Positions 1 through 43,472 of a DNA stretch of 64,000 bases are shown in pieces. A program made the translations under genes and the position numbers. How positions within the stretch are numbered: the stretch's first letter is position 1; each line of letters opens with the position of its first letter. Origin of the DNA: Escherichia coli. GTDB taxonomy: Bacteria > Pseudomonadota > Gammaproteobacteria > Enterobacterales > Enterobacteriaceae. The stretch is from NCBI RefSeq assembly GCF_003334305.1, contig NZ_QOWS01000011.1; one strand, 5' to 3'. Under the pieces are notes generated by a model, which worked only from the letters and a program-made list of their open reading frames with translations, was not told the DNA's origin and searched no databases.

Positions 1-1
1 C

Positions 2-1141
2 GACGGAACGCAGGCGACATTTATTGATGATGCTGGGGAGCAAAAATGGGCGGTGGATTCCATTGCCGACTGCGCGCGTCGTTTTATGGCGCATCCTCAG
101 GTGAAAGGACGTCGGGTATATGGACAGGTTGGGTTCAACTTTGCGGCGCATGCGCGGGGGATTGCCTTTAACGCCGGGGAGTGGCCGCTGCTGACGTTAA
201 CCGTTCCCCGTGAAGAACTTATTTTTGAAAAGGGAAATGTCACCGTTTATGCGGACTCCGCCGACGGGTGCCGACGTTTGTGCGAGTGGGTAAAAGAGGC
301 CGGTACAACGACGCAGAACGCACCACTGGCGGTGGATACCGCCCTCAATGGTGAGGCATATAAACAACAGGTTGCGCGCGCCGTTGCGGAGATCCGCCGT
401 GGCGAGTATGTCAAAGTGATTGTCTCGCGCGCCATTCCCCTGCCATCGCGGATTGATATGCCCGCCACGCTGTTATACGGGCGGCAGGCAAACACGCCTG
501 TGCGCTCGTTTATGTTCCGTCAGGAAGGACGCGAAGCGCTGGGCTTTAGCCCGGAACTGGTGATGTCAGTGACGGGCAATAAAGTGGTCACTGAACCGCT
601 TGCGGGCACCCGAGATCGCATGGGAAACCCGGAGCATAATAAGGCGAAAGAGGCAGAACTGCTGCACGACAGTAAAGAGGTGCTTGAGCATATCCTTTCT
701 GTCAAAGAAGCTATTGCTGAACTGGAGGCTGTTTGCCAGCCGGGCAGCGTGGTGGTTGAAGATTTAATGTCGGTTCGCCAGCGCGGCAGCGTTCAGCATC
801 TGGGGTCTGGCGTGAGCGGTCAGCTTGCGGAAAACAAGGATGCCTGGGATGCGTTTACCGTGCTGTTTCCGTCGATTACCGCCTCAGGTATCCCTAAAAA
901 TGCTGCTCTGAACGCGATTATGCAAATTGAGAAGACGCCGCGAGAGCTTTATTCCGGCGCAATCCTGCTGCTGGACGATACGCGCTTTGATGCGGCGCTA
1001 GTTCTGCGTTCCGTATTTCAGGATAGCCAGCGCTGCTGGATACAGGCGGGGGCGGGAATCATCGCGCAATCTACGCCGGAACGCGAACTGACAGAAACCC
1101 GGGAGAAATTAGCGAGCATTGCGCCCTATTTAATGGTGTAG
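2..1141 (+). CDS. ybtS: Salicylate synthase of the yersiniabactin pathway (Irp9/YbtS-like), 5'-truncated by the window edge
   Basis: Reading frame open from position 2 (no stop upstream of the GTG at 53); chorismate-binding enzyme family C-terminal domain; genomic context. Confidence 0.75.
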   Translation, partial: DGTQATFIDDAGEQKWAVDSIADCARRFMAHPQVKGRRVYGQVGFNFAAHARGIAFNAGEWPLLTLTVPREELIFEKGNVTVYADSADGCRRLCEWVKEAGTTTQNAPLAVDTALNGEAYKQQVARAVAEIRRGEYVKVIVSRAIPLPSRIDMPATLLYGRQANTPVRSFMFRQEGREALGFSPELVMSVTGNKVVTEPLAGTRDRMGNPEHNKAKEAELLHDSKEVLEHILSVKEAIAELEAVCQPGSVVVEDLMSVRQRGSVQHLGSGVSGQLAENKDAWDAFTVLFPSITASGIPKNAALNAIMQIEKTPRELYSGAILLLDDTRFDAALVLRSVFQDSQRCWIQAGAGIIAQSTPERELTETREKLASIAPYLMV

Positions 1142-1334
1142 GAGTAACTGTTTTCTAACCTCACAACCAGACTGTCCAAAGACAATTGAGTCGCTCTTTG
1201 ATTCCTCTGTGACTCTATTGTCTTCTTTTGGGATAAAATAGGTGTTTTTCGTCATGAAGTTGATAAAAGTCTATATAGAACCACCTCCTGTGGAGGTGGT
1301 GGTAATTTGCCAGAGTGTGGGATTCGTTAGTATA

Positions 1335-2597
1335 CTATGGGATAAACTTATTTTTACCAATTGTATAAGGCGGTGCATAAGATTCTCGGCATGCTTCCAG
1401 ATAATCCGACCACCACTGCATCATCGCTTTGCGGGCTTCCAGGTGCTCTGCCTTATGAATATAAGCCATGCGCACGGTATTGCGCTCCTGATGACTCATC
1501 TGGCGTTCTACTGCGTCCTTTGCCCATAAACCCGATTCCATCAGCGCACTGCATGCCATTGCCCGGAAGCCGTGACCGCAGATATCCTTTTTCGTGTCGT
1601 AACCCATCACCCGCAGTGCCTTATTGACCGTGTTTTCACACATTGGCTTATACGGGTTATGGTCGCCGGGGAAGATCAGTTCATTATTACCGGTGATATC
1701 CTTAATCTGTTTCAGAATGGCGATGGACTGTTCTGAGAGGGGGACGATATGCGGCATTCGCATTTTTGCCCCGCGGCCGGAATAATGCACGCCAATAATG
1801 GGTTCTCGCGTCGCGGGTATCGTCCAGACTCGGTTTGTGAAATCAATCTCTGACCAGCGGGCGAAACGCAGTTCACTGGAGCGAATGAACACATGCAGCA
1901 TCAGCAGAACGGCATGCCGGGTCAGTTCACGGCCCTGATGATATGCCCCAATACGTTCAAGCAGTTCAGGCAGCCGCTCCAGCGGCAGGGCAGGATAGTG
2001 CCGTCTGACAGGAGGTGTGGTCACGCCGCCAAGGTTTGCTGCAGGGTTCGTATCGATTAACTCCTGATGGACCGCATGGCGTATTATGTTACTCAGGTGC
2101 TGCCGTGTGCGGGACGCAACCTCCAGCAGACCTTTTTCCTCGATCCCTTTCTGCAGGTCAATGAAATGACGGGGTTTAAGTTCTGATACAGGTAGGTTCC
2201 CGATGACCGGAAAGATGTGATTGTTCAGGCTGGCAAGCAGACGGTCGGCGGTGTTCTGCGACCATTTCCTGTTACTTTTATGCCACGCCAGCGCCACGTT
2301 TTTAAAAACTTTCTCCGGTGTTCGTGAGCCACGTACAGCAGCCCGCTGCTGTACCGGGTTGATATTCAGCGCCAGCATTTTACGGATACCTTCACGTTGC
2401 TGTCGCGCATCAGACAGGGAGATGGCTGGATAGGCACCCAGCGCAATGCGGGATTCTTTACCGCTAATACGGTATTTGAGATACCAGTGGCGGGAGCCAC
2501 CCGGCTTGACCCGCAGATACAGACCGTGAGAATCGGAGACTTTAAAGGGTTTATCAGAAGGCTTGAGGGTGCGGATTTTTGCGTCGGTAAGGGATAT
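1335..2597 (-). CDS. int: P4-family tyrosine integrase (HPI int); 420-codon frame, but the expected initiator position is ATA
   Basis: 347-aa ORF from ATG at 2378 extends in frame upstream through a canonical P4-integrase N-terminus (ISLTDAKIRSLKPSDKPFKVSDSHGLYLRVKPGGSRHWYLKYRISGKE...) to a TAA at 2613-2615. Confidence 0.85.
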   Translation of the reverse strand: MSLTDAKIRTLKPSDKPFKVSDSHGLYLRVKPGGSRHWYLKYRISGKESRIALGAYPAISLSDARQQREGIRKMLALNINPVQQRAAVRGSRTPEKVFKNVALAWHKSNRKWSQNTADRLLASLNNHIFPVIGNLPVSELKPRHFIDLQKGIEEKGLLEVASRTRQHLSNIIRHAVHQELIDTNPAANLGGVTTPPVRRHYPALPLERLPELLERIGAYHQGRELTRHAVLLMLHVFIRSSELRFARWSEIDFTNRVWTIPATREPIIGVHYSGRGAKMRMPHIVPLSEQSIAILKQIKDITGNNELIFPGDHNPYKPMCENTVNKALRVMGYDTKKDICGHGFRAMACSALMESGLWAKDAVERQMSHQERNTVRMAYIHKAEHLEARKAMMQWWSDYLEACRESYAPPYTIGKNKFIP

Positions 2598-2758
2598 ATG
2601 GGGGTCACTCCATTATCGAACTAACCTGACCCCAGATTTGACCACCAATTTTTCCCGATGCGTAGGGTAAAATCAAAATGCACCGAGAAGAGTTTTCACA
2701 CTAACCTGTTGAATCAACATCAGATAAAGATTCGCAAGGATGCAAGAAAACAGAAAAT

Positions 2759-2834
2759 TGGCTCCTCTGACTGGACTCGAACCAGTGACATACGGATTAA
2801 CAGTCCGCCGTTCTACCGACTGAACTACAGAGGA
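2759..2834 (-). tRNA. asnT: tRNA-Asn (GUU)
   Basis: Exact match to remembered E. coli tRNA-Asn, 76 nt with CCA end; identified as asnT by the flanking mtfA. Confidence 0.95.
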
Positions 2835-2934
2835 ATCGTGAGAACGGGGCGCATATTACTTAGCGGTACCTTGTCTGTCAACACTAAATTTCATAAGCCA
2901 TTTCAATTGGTTAATTAATCTGCAAAGTTGTTAA

Positions 2935-3732
2935 TTAATGAACATTCGTCGCCGAAAACGAGTCTGTATCATTAGCGTGATGCAGTCTCTGCAAAGGATC
3001 TTGTTGATAAAATTGGCAGAAACGTTGCCACAATGAAGGGAAACGAGGAGCAAAAAGTTCTGGGGCGCTAAAGAAATATTCAGAAAGTACGGCAAAACAT
3101 TCAGCAGGATCACTGGCAGCATAAGCATCGATGCTCGCCGCATTCTCGCCAACCAATTCGATTTCTTCCTGAATGTTGTTCATTGCAGCATGAAGATCGT
3201 GTTCCCAGCCAGCAACCTCACGCAACGGAATAAAGGGAACTCCGCTGGCGCGATCGCCGTTACGGGTGTCCAGCTTATGAGCGACTTCATGAATAATCAG
3301 GTTAAAACCAGAAGCATCAAAAGAATCTTGTATATCCAACCAGTTCAAAACGATAGGCCCTTGCTGCCAGCTCTGACCTGACTGAACAATACGTTGGTTA
3401 TGCACCAGACCGATATCGTCTTCCCATTCATCATCGACCACAAATGGCGCAGGATAAATTAAGACTTCATGAAAACCATCCAGCCATTCCAGTCCTAACT
3501 CCAGAACGGGCAGGCAAAATAGAAGTGCTATCCGGCAGCTTCTTAATGAATTCAGCTCAAAGCCCTGTAAAGGAACAAGCCGTTTTTGCTGTAAAAAACG
3601 TTCGGCAAGAGTGACTAATTTGCTTTGTTCCTGTTCCGTCAGACACGTTAAAAGGGGGATCGATAGTGCTTCCTGCCAGGGAAGGGCAGTTTGATGTGCT
3701 GATTCTTGTACTTTCCAGGGCCACTTAATCAT
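2935..3732 (-). CDS. mtfA: Mlc titration factor A (zinc-dependent aminopeptidase)
   Basis: 265-aa frame with HEVAHKLD zinc motif; start taken at MIKWPWK, inside the longer track ORF. Confidence 0.9.
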
Positions 3733-3825
3733 CGTTTTGCTCGCAAACTCGTCACTTGAACAAAATTGCACGGACAGGGACTGTTAAAATGCCAAATTTC
3801 CTGGCATCATGGCAACCATCTGAAC

Positions 3826-3915
3826 GGAGAGATGCCGGAGCGGCTGAACGGACCGGTCTCGAAAACCGGAGTAGGGGCAACTCTACCGGGGGTTCAAATC
3901 CCCCTCTCTCCGCCA
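3826..3915 (+). tRNA. serU: tRNA-Ser (CGA)
   Basis: 90-nt match to remembered E. coli tRNA-Ser with long variable arm and CCA end. Confidence 0.95.
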
Positions 3916-4584
3916 CTTTATCAATGACTTATCTCCCGACTTCCCGCCTTGCTTTTCCTAAACAGAACAATCGTAGAATATTCTTGAAGGGTTAGATCGT
4001 CACTGTTTTCTGTTCGATACTGTGACATTCAGCACTTGATTCGCTATGGGTCTGACAGGAAGGTTTCGAGCGAAAATCTACAGTTATTCAGTCGTTTTCT
4101 TATCGGTCACCATTATTCTTTTAGACATTGATCCTATGAAACTGCCGCAAAGTTGCTGGCGGGAACTGAAGTTGCGTAGAGAAGGGGTCAATAATTGAGC
4201 CAAAAAAGGAACGCGGCCGTCAGATTAAAGCCGCGGGACAAAGTCCATAATTTCCAAGAGTTGTTGAATTTCCCAGCTTTTTTGAAAGCCTTTGTATCAT
4301 ACTAACAAGTAAAAAAGGTTTAAATACCAAAATTAACCTATATTTCTGGTTAGCTTTACCATGACAGATGACTTGCTCCTGGAGACATTGGCGCAGCCCG
4401 TCTGTATTGGTGAGTTGTGTATTTATTGTTCGCCGTTTTCTCAGTTTTTTTCTACAGACATAATAAAAAAGACACGTCTCAAGCATGAGCGTGTCTGAGT
4501 TTGTCTTATTTATTTGTCTTGGTAAATTATTGTCGTTACTACCAGGCACTGTTCTGTTAAATAATTGAAGTCAGCGCAAAAAAA

Positions 4585-11366: not shown

Positions 11367-12482
11367 TTAGAACTGGTAGACGATACCAACTGCAAACTGG
11401 TCATCAGCTGCTGCGCCAGTAATGGCGGCGTCATCTTTATCCAGCATGTTGAATTTGTATGCAGTATAAACGTTCATGTTCTTATTAAAGTAGTACCAGG
11501 TACCAACTTCAATGTAGTTCACACGGTCAGCGTCAACATATCTATGTCCAGGTACCCCTTTGATATCTTTACCTTTAGAGTACACATAACCTAAGGACGG
11601 ACGCAGACCAAAGTCGAATTGATACTGAACAACCGCTTCAAAGTTCTGGGTTTCATTGATAAGTTGATCACGCATTATTGTATTGCCTTCTCGATCGGCA
11701 ACACCTGTATCAATAGAACCCGGAGTCATATTACGAGTTTCGCCGTACATTACAGCTGCGTAGACATTGTTCGCGTCATACTTTGCAGCCAATGACCACA
11801 GTTCAGCATTTGAACCGTTTCCATCGGCAACTTGATCGTTGGTGCGATCAGATTTGCTATATGCACCAACGATACCAAAACCATTGATGTTATAGTCTAC
11901 AGACAACGCATAGCCGTCACCATTTTGTTTCTTAGTGCTACGGTTGCTGTTTTTGCCTTGGTACTGAATCGCAAAATCAAGACCATCAACCAGGCCAAAG
12001 AAATCATAGTTACGGTAGGTTGCAACACCGTTGGTACGACCATTCATGAAGTTGTCAGCGGAAGCCCAGGAATCGCCACCCCATTCAACTAACATATCGG
12101 TATAAGCTGCGGCATCATAAGCAACACCGTAGTTACGGCCATAGTCAAATGATCCTAACTCGTTATATTTCAAACCGGCGAAGGTTAAACGGGTTTTTTC
12201 CTGGTTTTCACCTTCGGGCTTGCTGGCGTCGAGGTTGTATTCAAACTGACCAAAACCAGTCAGTTCGCTGGTGATTTGGGTTTCACCTTTAACACCGAAA
12301 CGAGCATAGGAGGTATCTTCGTTTTCGCTGTTATTATCATCAGTATTTGACCAGATGCGTTCGCCAACCATCTTGCCGTAGAAATCAACTTTATTGCCAT
12401 CTTTATTATAAATTTCAGCCGCATTTGCTGCGCCAGCAACTAATAACGCCGGGACCAGCATTGCCAGAACTTTTCTTTTCAT
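11367..12482 (-). CDS. yedS: Intact OmpC/OmpF-family outer-membrane porin at the yedS position
   Basis: 371-aa frame from [21 protein letters not shown] (signal peptide) to a C-terminal F; classical porin motifs; sits where K-12 has the yedS pseudogene. Confidence 0.85.
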
Positions 12483-12796
12483 TATGTATTCCCTTGTGAT
12501 TATAATCTTCATGAATATATCAATAAGTGCCGTTATCCAAAAAAAAGCACATTTGGATACTATTCTATGAAGTTCATTTTATTTTAAGGATTACATGTAA
12601 CAAATGTATTTAAAAGATTTCAAAGTGTTTCTAATATATTTAATATAATTCAGGATTATGAATTCTGAATATAAACATTCATGAAGATTATAAATGTATA
12701 TCAATAAGTTATGAGTTGAACTGAAAGATAGGGAGTATCAATGATCGTTGCGCTAAACGGCTGGTGTGATCACGCGCACATTAATGAAGGCATAAA

Positions 12797-12826
12797 AAAA
12801 AGCCGGCATCATGCCGGCCCAAAAAA
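12797..12826 (-). terminator. Strong intrinsic terminator on the minus strand in the porin-yedR spacer
   Basis: GC-rich hairpin GCCGGCATCATGCCGGC followed by eight U on the minus strand. Confidence 0.7.
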
Positions 12827-12886
12827 TATAAACAAGACGATAAAAGGCTAATAACGGAGGCATCATGACACAGAATAATAAAAAGG
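12797..12886 (-). ncRNA. rseX: Candidate small RNA (about 90 nt) ending at the terminator; position consistent with RseX
   Basis: Possible sigma70 promoter (TTCAAT, 18-nt spacer, TACAAT) about 90 nt upstream of the terminator on the minus strand; RseX placed between yedR and yedS from memory; 5' end not established. Confidence 0.4.
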
Positions 12887-21219: not shown

Positions 21220-21306
21220 AACACATCAGATTTCCTGGTGTAACGAATTTTTTAAGTGCTTCTTGCTTAAGCAAGTTTCATCCCGACCCCCTCAGGGTCG
21301 GGATTT
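21220..21306 (+). ncRNA. dsrA: DsrA small regulatory RNA
   Basis: 87-nt match to remembered DsrA, including the terminal CCCGACCCCCTCAGGGTCGGG hairpin and U-tract. Confidence 0.95.
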
Positions 21307-33834: not shown

Positions 33835-34251
33835 GTTGTGTTACGTGTTGATTGTGCTTGTTTAATGACATCCAAACTCACAGCGTGGGGCATTGATGGG
33901 GCAAACTCACTCAATTTCTGGTTTAAAATGGAAACCTGATTCTGAAAGTTTTCTGCCATCCACGATCCGTATACGTGATAACCCCCCTGAACATCAGAGT
34001 GTCTCCTTTAACACGCATCACCAGGTCGGTTGTTGTTACGACCACAGACGCAACATTAATATTTTGATAATTTCATCTTATTTGATGTTTTTATTCATAT
34101 TCCGGGCTAGGGAAATAATCAGGCATAATTGTGTCACTGGAATAGAGGTTTCTTGTGGCGCATGTGGAAAGAGCGTCTAAGGACAAGACATTTGCGGCTG
34201 ATAATAAATAAAGGCGCAGCTCGTCGAATGCAAGAATGTGCTGCGTCTGGC

Positions 34252-34841: not shown

Positions 34842-35510
34842 TCAAACAGGTTGAATTAACTCCGCGCCCTGGTTTTTGACATTACCTACCGCGCGCGATA
34901 CCGGGTGCCAGGTGAACTGGTTTGCTGGAACACAGCCACTGGCAGCAATTTCAGAGGCTTATTTACCGCTAATCTCTTGCCGCATCCATTCCCGCGCAGC
35001 TTCTGGCGACAGTACCAGCGGGCGGCGGTCATGAATATCTACCAGACCCTGGTCTGCTGCTGCAGTGACAATTAAAAATCCTTCGGCTTCGTCACCACGC
35101 TCAAACGGTGTGCTACCTATCGCGGCTATAAAAACAGGTTGTCCATCAGCGCGATAGATAAAATAAGGCTGTTTTTTGTCGCCTTCTTTTTTCCACTCAA
35201 ACCAGCCATCGGCAAAACAGATTGCCCGACCATGTTGCCAGAGCGGTTTAAACATACGACTGGTTGCGGCAGTTTCTACGCGGGCGTTAATCAGCGGCGG
35301 TTTATCCCACCATCCGGGAGCATATCCCCAGAAAACCGGATCCAGATGAAGGTGTTCATCACGTTCACTGAGCAGAAGGACTTTGGTTCCCGGCGCGACG
35401 TTGTATCTGCCAATGGGTTCGGGATCATAGGGAATATCGCGTTCAATATCTTCCGCGAGAAGCGCAAGGTAATCTTCACGCGTTTGGGATTGGGCAAAGC
35501 GTCCACACAT
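34842..35510 (-). pseudogene. yedK: yedK (SRAP-family abasic-site processing protein) interrupted by an in-frame TAA at 34959-34961; 183 codons before it, 38 intact codons after it
   Basis: N-terminal MCGRF (catalytic Cys2) and SRAP domain; the frame resumes after the TAA as ASEIAASGCVPANQFTWHPVSRAVGNVKNQGAELIQPV, ending at TGA 34842-34844; 183+1+38 = 222, the remembered K-12 length. Confidence 0.7.
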
Positions 35511-41724: not shown

Positions 41725-43431
41725 ATGGCACAAGTCATTAATACCAACAGCCTCTCGCTGATCACTCAAAATAATATCAACAAGAACCAGTCTGCGCTGT
41801 CGAGTTCTATCGAGCGTCTGTCTTCTGGCTTGCGTATTAACAGCGCGAAGGATGACGCCGCAGGTCAGGCGATTGCTAACCGTTTTACTTCTAATATTAA
41901 AGGCCTGACTCAGGCTGCACGTAACGCCAACGACGGTATCTCCGTTGCGCAGACCACTGAAGGCGCGCTGTCCGAAATCAACAACAACTTACAGCGTATT
42001 CGTGAACTGACGGTTCAGGCTTCTACCGGGACTAACTCCGATTCAGATCTGGACTCCATTCAGGACGAAATCAAATCCCGTCTCGACGAAATTGACCGCG
42101 TATCCGGTCAGACCCAGTTCAACGGCGTGAACGTACTGGCGAAAGACGGTTCGATGAAAATTCAGGTTGGTGCGAATGACGGCCAGACTATCACTATTGA
42201 TCTGAAGAAAATTGACTCTGATACGCTGGGGCTGAATGGGTTTAACGTTAACGGCAAAGGTACTATTGCGAACAAAGCTGCTACAGTCAGCGATCTGACC
42301 GCTGCTGGTGCAACGGGAACAGGTCCTTATGCTGTGACCACAAACAATACAGCTCTCAGCGCTAGCGATGCACTGTCTCGCCTGAAAACCGGAGATACAG
42401 TTACTACTACTGGCTCGAGTGCTGCGACCTATACTTATGATGCGGCTAAAGGGAACTTCACCACTCAAGCAACAGTTGCAGATGGTGATGTTGTTAACTT
42501 TGCAAATACTCTGAAACCAGCGGCTGGCACTACTGCATCAGGTGTTTATACTCGTAGTACTGGTGATGTGAAGTTTGATGTAGATGCTAATGGCGATGTG
42601 ACCATCGGTGGTAAAGCCGCGTACCTGGACGCCACTGGTAACCTATCTACAAACAACGCCGGCATTGCATCTTCAGCGAAATTGTCCGATCTGTTTGCTA
42701 GCGGTAGTACTTTAGCGACAACTGGTTCTATCCAGCTGTCTGGCACAACTTATAACTTTGGTGCTGCGGCAACTTCTGGCGTAACCTACACCAAAACGGT
42801 AAGTGCTGATACTGTTCTGAGCACAGTACAGAGTGCTGCAACGGCTAACACAGCAGTTACTGGTGCGACAATTAAGTATAATACAGGTATTCAGTCTGCA
42901 ACTGCGTCTTTCGGTGGTGCGAATACTAATGGTGCTGGTAATTCGAATGACACCTATACTGATGCAGACAAAGAGCTCACCACAACCGCATCTTACACTA
43001 TCAACTACAACGTCGATAAGGATACCGGTACAGTAACTGTAGCTTCAAATGGCGCAGGTGCAACTGGTAAATTTGCAGCTACTGTTGGGGCACAGGCTTA
43101 TGTTAACTCTACAGGTAAACTGACCACTGAAACCACCAGTGCAGGCACTGCAACCCAAGATCCTCTGGCTGCCCTGGACGACGCTATCAGCTCCATCGAC
43201 AAATTCCGTTCATCCCTGGGTGCTATCCAGAACCGTCTGGATTCTGCGGTGACTAACCTGAACAACACCACTACCAACCTGTCTGAAGCGCAGTCCCGTA
43301 TTCAGGACGCTGACTATGCGACCGAAGTGTCCAACATGTCGAAAGCGCAGATTATCCAGCAGGCCGGTAACTCCGTGCTGGCAAAAGCCAACCAGGTACC
43401 GCAGCAGGTTCTGTCTCTGCTGCAGGGATAA
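41725..43431 (+). CDS. fliC: Flagellin (H antigen), 568 aa, non-K-12 central domain
   Basis: Conserved N-terminal ([20 protein letters not shown]...) and C-terminal (LSLLQG) flagellin domains flanking a long Thr/Ala/Gly-rich variable region. Confidence 0.95.
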
Positions 43432-43447
43432 TCGCCTGATTACGCGC

Positions 43448-43472
43448 AAACCCCGCTCCGGCGGGGTTTTTT
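43448..43472 (+). terminator. fliC intrinsic terminator
   Basis: AAACCCCGC TCCG GCGGGGTTTTTT hairpin with U-tract. Confidence 0.9.

Follow-up and report, generated by a model that had tools for sequence, protein, structure and literature searches.

The first 2774 positions of a 64,000-nt stretch of an Escherichia coli genome (contig NZ_QOWS01000011.1 of assembly GCF_003334305.1; the whole stretch is called the window below) almost certainly represent attL, the left end, of a complete Yersinia high-pathogenicity island (HPI) of the 'common E. coli type', inserted at asnT, at this tRNA gene's 3' end. The identification relies on sequence identity to annotated records and not on a statistical pattern; chance is no issue here. 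The entire window is found, as the reverse complement, at 2778660-2842659 of NZ_CP028767.1 (0 mismatches in 64,000 bases), the sole record with a perfect score for a 25-kb query, which belongs to E. coli strain A7, isolated in the USA from the faeces of an orangutan. To the left of what is position 1 of the window, this record carries the rest of ybtS, followed by ybtX, ybtQ, ybtP, ybtA, irp2, irp1, ybtU, ybtT, ybtE and fyuA, and its annotation shows no pseudogene flag on any of the ybt, irp or fyuA genes. The cargo of the island comprises 11 yersiniabactin genes (synthesis, regulation, export and uptake), of which only ybtS lies, in part, within the window; strain 144 exhibits the same island layout as A7. 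An earlier note, made from the letters of the window alone, had called the strain HPI-positive and had named the leftward extension as the way to check it; ybtX/Q/P/A, irp2, irp1 and fyuA are all present in the identical record, and leftward sequence devoid of yersiniabactin genes was not encountered. Thus, HPI-positivity holds as a genotype predicted from the complete ybt locus of that record, from which we infer siderophore production by the strain.

The 3' part of ybtS (irp9; 1..1141, + strand, open at the left edge) covers 1141 of the 1305 nt of the gene, i.e. 379 codons and the stop (87%). These codons score 622.8 bits on the NCBIfam equivalog TIGR03494 'salicylate synthase' (cutoff 325.15) with the N-terminal 55 residues missing, and RefSeq names the open reading frame ybtS/Irp9 (WP_000703040.1), the yersiniabactin salicylate synthase encoded by the final gene of the ybtPQXS operon. 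The convergent neighbor, int (intB; 1335..2597, - strand), encodes a P4-type tyrosine recombinase of 420 codons, as identified by Pfam and by alignment with P4 Int, and the coding sequence (CDS) WP_024165620.1, predicted by the Prokaryotic Genome Annotation Pipeline (PGAP), has identical limits. The stop codons of the two genes are separated by 193 bp, and this gap contains an inverted repeat with 14-nt arms and an 18-nt loop (1179..1224, no strand assigned), detected by the repeat search, which is a candidate terminator hairpin; a simple terminator scan of the gap did not call the 1179-1224 repeat and gave a sole match inside ybtS, on the wrong strand. Beyond int, and in the same orientation, lies an intact tRNA-Asn(GTT) gene (2759..2834, - strand; ARAGORN, Rfam RF00005 with 72.6 bits), so that int starts 161 bp downstream of the tRNA. 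The earlier note had described exactly this arrangement, with the 3' part of ybtS and a P4-type integrase converging beside tRNA-Asn, and TIGR03494, Pfam and ARAGORN bear it out; it was also right that only the border falls within the window, ybtS being the sole yersiniabactin gene inside.

The 17-bp attachment (att) core CCAGTCAGAGGAGCCAA (attL; 2758..2774, - strand) consists of the tRNA-Asn 3' end plus one base, and the identical 17-mer has been named attO (PMC2801613). Comparison with K-12 revealed that the island diverges directly after this core. The island-side arm of attL is at the same time the 5' leader of int (160 nt; 2598..2757, - strand), and the same 160-nt spacing recurs in the seven other species discussed below. 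Two CAGGTTAGT repeats are located in the leader, 80 bp apart (2613-2628 and 2693-2708); they are conserved in all aligned alleles and are candidate arm-type sites for Int binding. In ICEKp1, int lies 161 bp downstream of tRNA-asn, and transcription of int from the tRNA-asn promoter has been shown in work on ICEEc1 and ICEKp1 (PMC13023037). The promoter scan detected a sigma-70-like promoter (TTGACA, 17-nt spacer, TAATAT; 2853..2881, - strand) directly upstream of asnT, which is the probable asnT promoter and, by analogy with ICEKp1 and ICEEc1, may also drive asn-int read-through.

The assignment of the tRNA gene to asnT requires support from its surroundings, since the four tRNA-Asn genes share the 17-mer 3' end and cannot be distinguished by their own sequences, a fact that would equally accommodate asnU, asnV or asnW. 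The tRNA gene is followed by mtfA (yeeI; 2935..3732, - strand; NCBIfam NF011939, 540.9 bits, and annotation) and serU, encoding tRNA-Ser(CGA) (3826..3915, + strand; ARAGORN and annotation), both belonging to the chromosomal flank, in the same order as in K-12 b1975-b1977, and after serU by zinT, msrQP, hiuH and hprRS. The K-12 gene order is zinT, yodB, serU, mtfA, asnT, yeeJ, and this locus aligns with that of the window to the last base of the tRNA. The tRNA-Asn gene is therefore identified as asnT by its mtfA/serU synteny with K-12 (asnT being b1977), as the earlier note had proposed. Another asn gene is scarcely credible at this position, given that both flanks are exactly those of K-12 asnT and that the remaining three genes lie past the island, by yeeN/yeeO, cbl and nac/ldtA.

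The window itself holds no more of the island than ybtS and int, and it could be imagined that only the int-ybtS border has been kept, with the biosynthesis genes to the left deleted or disrupted, so that the strain would not be functionally HPI-positive. Degraded borders do exist: in ECOR72 the upstream border has been removed by an insertion sequence (PMC2606025), and some int alleles are interrupted (that of H22 by an internal stop, that of 7_12_30A by a frameshift or deletion). However, the record identical over 64 kb has all ybt genes intact, and among 5,426 complete E. coli genomes, 2,241 contain the junction (at least 80% of window positions 1-2950; identity is at least 99% in 2,206) and 2,267 contain fyuA. 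Because these counts are nearly equal, the border is a good proxy for the whole island. On both grounds such a remnant is highly improbable.

Pfam identified three domains in the integrase, namely Arm-DNA-bind_3 (PF13356, 5.8e-24), Phage_int_M (PF22022, 1.3e-22) and Phage_integrase (PF00589, 1.6e-19), i.e. the arm-binding N-terminal, the central SAM-like and the C-terminal catalytic domain are all there. The Int protein of satellite phage P4 aligns with it at 48% identity over 419 residues (E = 7e-150), from end to end and with the same three-domain architecture, and both proteins retain the motifs RSSELRFARW, HGFR and AYIH. An integrase 99.8% identical is contained in the GenBank 'phage' record ON470583.1 (vB_EcoS-689R5, partial genome), which was considered as a possible case of a phage-borne HPI integrase and rejected: the record is a lambdoid prophage at serU deposited together with its chromosomal mtfA-asnT-int flank. 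Its positions 1-2578 are chromosomal (HPI integrase, asnT, mtfA and serU), and the prophage begins only afterwards; the depositor called the integrase from an internal ATG. The record is thus over-extended and could mislead searches for phage integrases.

The far end of the island, which was analyzed in the A7 record, bears on its type. Measured between the core and the stop codon of fyuA, the island is 30,446 bp long, with a GC content of 58.5% vs 49.5% in the backbone (window 2835-64000), and the GC profile falls across the tRNA. In the A7 region the 17-mer core occurs solely inside the four tRNA-Asn genes; beyond fyuA no copy was found with up to 4 mismatches allowed, and strain 144 likewise showed none there. 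A K-12 segment of 587 bp downstream of asnT (bases 3627-4213 of the K-12 sequence L014), which includes terminator-like hairpins and the first ~220 bp of yeeJ, has no counterpart in A7, where fyuA is followed by ~650 bp of AT-rich DNA and then by a truncated yeeJ; no conjugation genes were found downstream of fyuA in this record. Outside the window in the A7 genome (33000-35807 and 41718-43617 of the A7 sequence L002), yeeJ, which codes for an inverse autotransporter adhesin, is in fragments beside the island, and asnW has no pks/colibactin island, yeeN, asnW and yeeO being contiguous. The border deletion agrees with the description of the common E. coli type of HPI as an asnT insertion with a unique deletion at the fyuA border that includes neighboring backbone (Schubert et al. 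2009, PMC2606025); in that type, loss of the direct repeat has left the island immobile, so that it spreads only by vertical inheritance or through homologous recombination in the flanking DNA (PMC2606025). The features expected of this type (asnT insertion with the core, P4-like int, complete ybt locus, distinct GC content and fyuA-border deletion) were all found, partly in the window and partly in the A7 record. The island cannot excise, because the fyuA-side repeat and the adjacent backbone have been deleted. A still-mobile island similar to the integrative and conjugative elements (ICE) ICEEc1 and ICEKp, able to excise and conjugate, might be suggested by the uninterrupted frame of int with all three domains kept, and by the tRNA-to-int spacing, which equals that of ICEKp1. 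Against it speak the ~650 bp and truncated yeeJ that follow fyuA in A7, with neither a conjugation module nor a second att core, the ATA start codon of int described below, and the asnT site with the common-type deletion vs the ECOR31 ICE, which is inserted at asnV with both repeats present (PMC2606025). Accordingly, a mobile ICE is exceedingly improbable, and the common E. coli type remains our assignment.

The integrase gene of this island exhibits an unusual start. Its initiation codon (2595-2597, - strand) is ATA, where relatives start with ATG, in a frame that opens after a TAA stop. No ATG, GTG or TTG was found in frame between this upstream stop and int codon 74; codon 74 itself, at 2378, is the next in-frame ATG and would yield a product of 347 aa without the arm-binding domain. 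The gene therefore has no canonical start codon from which a full-length integrase could be expressed, a property that concerns its function and not its membership in the P4-type family. The earlier note had spoken of a canonical HPI junction, which is correct as regards structure and gene order, but the integrase is not fully canonical on account of its ATA start. ATG stands here in other E. coli alleles, namely those of C8, H22, AR_0104/BAA-2469, FCI55, 7_12_30A and strain 61, the last being divergent. The scan of the genome collection with a degenerate motif of the int 5' region identified seven non-E. coli species (Klebsiella pneumoniae, K. spallanzanii, Raoultella planticola, Phytobacter massiliensis, Pantoea gossypiicola, Izhakiella australiensis and Affinibrenneria salicis), no Yersinia among them, and in each of the seven int starts with ATG at 160 nt from the core. 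Because these seven species and the remaining E. coli alleles that were examined all have ATG, the ATA codon is derived.

The distribution of int alleles was estimated from exact 81-mer counts over the 5,426 complete E. coli genomes. The ATA start is carried by the A7 type allele (801 genomes) and the MCJCHV-1 type allele (57 genomes), and the ATG start by the H22/AR_0104 type allele (537 genomes), by an A7 type with ATG restored (76 genomes) and by the C8 type allele (1 genome). As these counts cover 1,472 of the ~2,320 genomes that carry int and leave ~850 untyped, the figure for ATA alleles, at least 858 of ~2,320 (at least 37%), is a lower bound. AUA initiation in E. coli reaches ~1-2% of that from AUG, with a range of 0.02-3% (10.1101/063800). 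The ATA start thus probably lowers translation of the integrase, and the level of Int would be expected to be very low. Since attR is missing, the ATA start changes nothing for the mobility of the island; it would be a second lesion acting in the same direction. We propose tentatively, and with rather less than even confidence, that the change from ATG to ATA is a second, independent immobilizing lesion beside the attR deletion, which marks a large HPI sub-lineage of E. coli and is masked in RefSeq. No mention of the ATA start of the integrase was found in the open-access text of the papers searched.

Several points weigh against this reading of a complete and doubly immobilized island. That it is complete is known from a public record with the same sequence as the window, and only 2.8 kb of the island lie in the window itself, so that the full gene set of the strain is a prediction by identity. 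In the PGAP annotation, the integrase with the ATA start is listed as an uninterrupted CDS of 420 aa, and it is because of this annotation that the change is hidden from RefSeq users. Residual synthesis of Int could still take place despite the ATA start. Finally, the predicted fold of the 164-nt int leader is no stabler than that of shuffled sequence (z = -0.77), and the published attenuator stem-loops thus receive no independent support from it.

P4-type integrases, including that of the HPI, catalyze site-specific recombination between attP and the core at the 3' end of a tRNA gene. The island would have entered by Int-mediated recombination of attP with the 17-bp core that lies at an asn tRNA gene's 3' end, and integration would have put int directly downstream of the tRNA and co-oriented with it, with the ybtPQXS operon reading toward int. 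In this strain attR has been lost along with neighboring chromosomal DNA, including the asnT terminator displaced by the island and the yeeJ 5' end, and there is no conjugation module, so that the element is no longer self-mobile; the change from ATG to ATA should limit translation of int to a few percent at most. The island is therefore passed on vertically, or carried along passively when its flanks undergo homologous recombination.

Comparison with known systems places the border within a well-described group. With the common E. coli HPI it shares the asnT site, int by the tRNA, the convergence of ybtS and int, the full ybt/irp/fyuA set, the high GC content and the border deletion (PMC2606025, PMC7545054); nothing structural distinguishes the two, and the copy in the window merely has the ATA-start allele, one of several int alleles in E. 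coli. HPI-ICEEc1 (ECOR31) and ICEKp1 (K. pneumoniae) share with it the kind of integrase, the core of 17 bp, the distance between tRNA and int, and the ybt cargo; however, they keep both att repeats as well as a ~30-kb conjugation and DNA-processing module and excise, while the A7 record has neither and its int lacks the ATG. An int with the same 5' motif in the genome of K. pneumoniae ATCC 13883 is identical to the window int at 408 of 420 positions. The HPI of Yersinia pestis and Y. pseudotuberculosis, compared via the literature alone, has the same cargo and the same asn-tRNA target; it is described as flanked on each side by a 17-bp repeat and as able to insert at any of the asn tRNA genes. 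Satellite phage P4, in contrast, uses another att core and another tRNA target according to the literature, and it has its own excisionase, annotated as ORF88, a counterpart of which is not annotated in the A7 island.

The chromosomal flank was compared with K-12 as the one reference, and no boundary indicative of a recombination breakpoint was found in its 61 kb: divergence is uniform at ~1.5-2.5% per 2 kb, with the exceptions of zinT, the porin of the yedS locus and fliC, which are known to be hypervariable. At the K-12 yedS pseudogene locus the window has an intact 371-aa porin (11367-12482, - strand), and the 4 kb around it are 6.5-8% divergent from K-12 vs ~2% elsewhere. The fliC gene (41725-43431, + strand) encodes a 568-aa flagellin with a core (42251-43451) that does not align with K-12 fliC; as its central part is unalignable, the H antigen differs from that of K-12. 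The window lacks yodB, a cytochrome b561 homologue that K-12 has between zinT and serU; 222 bp at 4363-4584 replace ~995 bp of K-12. This yodB-less arrangement is present in 2,282 of the 5,426 genomes, and an evenly spaced sample contained 14 HPI-positive and 2 HPI-negative yodB-less genomes together with 5 HPI-positive and 21 HPI-negative genomes of the yodB type (odds ratio 29, Fisher p = 2e-5). The association of yodB loss with the HPI could reflect hitch-hiking of the flank or phylogroup structure. Of 59 E. coli genomes sampled, 17 show a break in the alignment right after serU (window ~3916-3931), which indicates inserted islands or prophages such as the lambdoid prophage of ON470583.1 or the serU island of uropathogenic E. 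coli; in the window the serU site is empty, with no island inserted. The gene yedK, coding for the SOS-response-associated peptidase (34842-35510, - strand), is interrupted by a stop in frame at codon 184 (of 222) and is a pseudogene in RefSeq. At ~34113-34116 the window lacks ~1.2 kb found in K-12 between yedL and fliE, a stretch that comprises yedN, a pseudogene, and one edge of the cryptic-prophage remnant with intG. The small RNAs DsrA (21220-21306, + strand, 102.5 bits) and RseX (12795-12884, - strand, 99 bits) are both at their usual loci.

The yersiniabactin island has an established role in the fitness and virulence of extraintestinal pathogenic E. coli, and the strain analyzed here falls in the ~41% of sequenced E. 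coli that possess it. The element is already known and thoroughly described, and the analysis offers no new biology; what it adds, to a minor extent, is the int allele with the ATA start and the fact that this allele is annotated as intact. In this strain the island is fixed in place, and the loss of the int ATG is invisible in automatic annotation. The border of int, ybtS and asnT reliably marks a complete island, and the finding serves as a descriptor of the strain.

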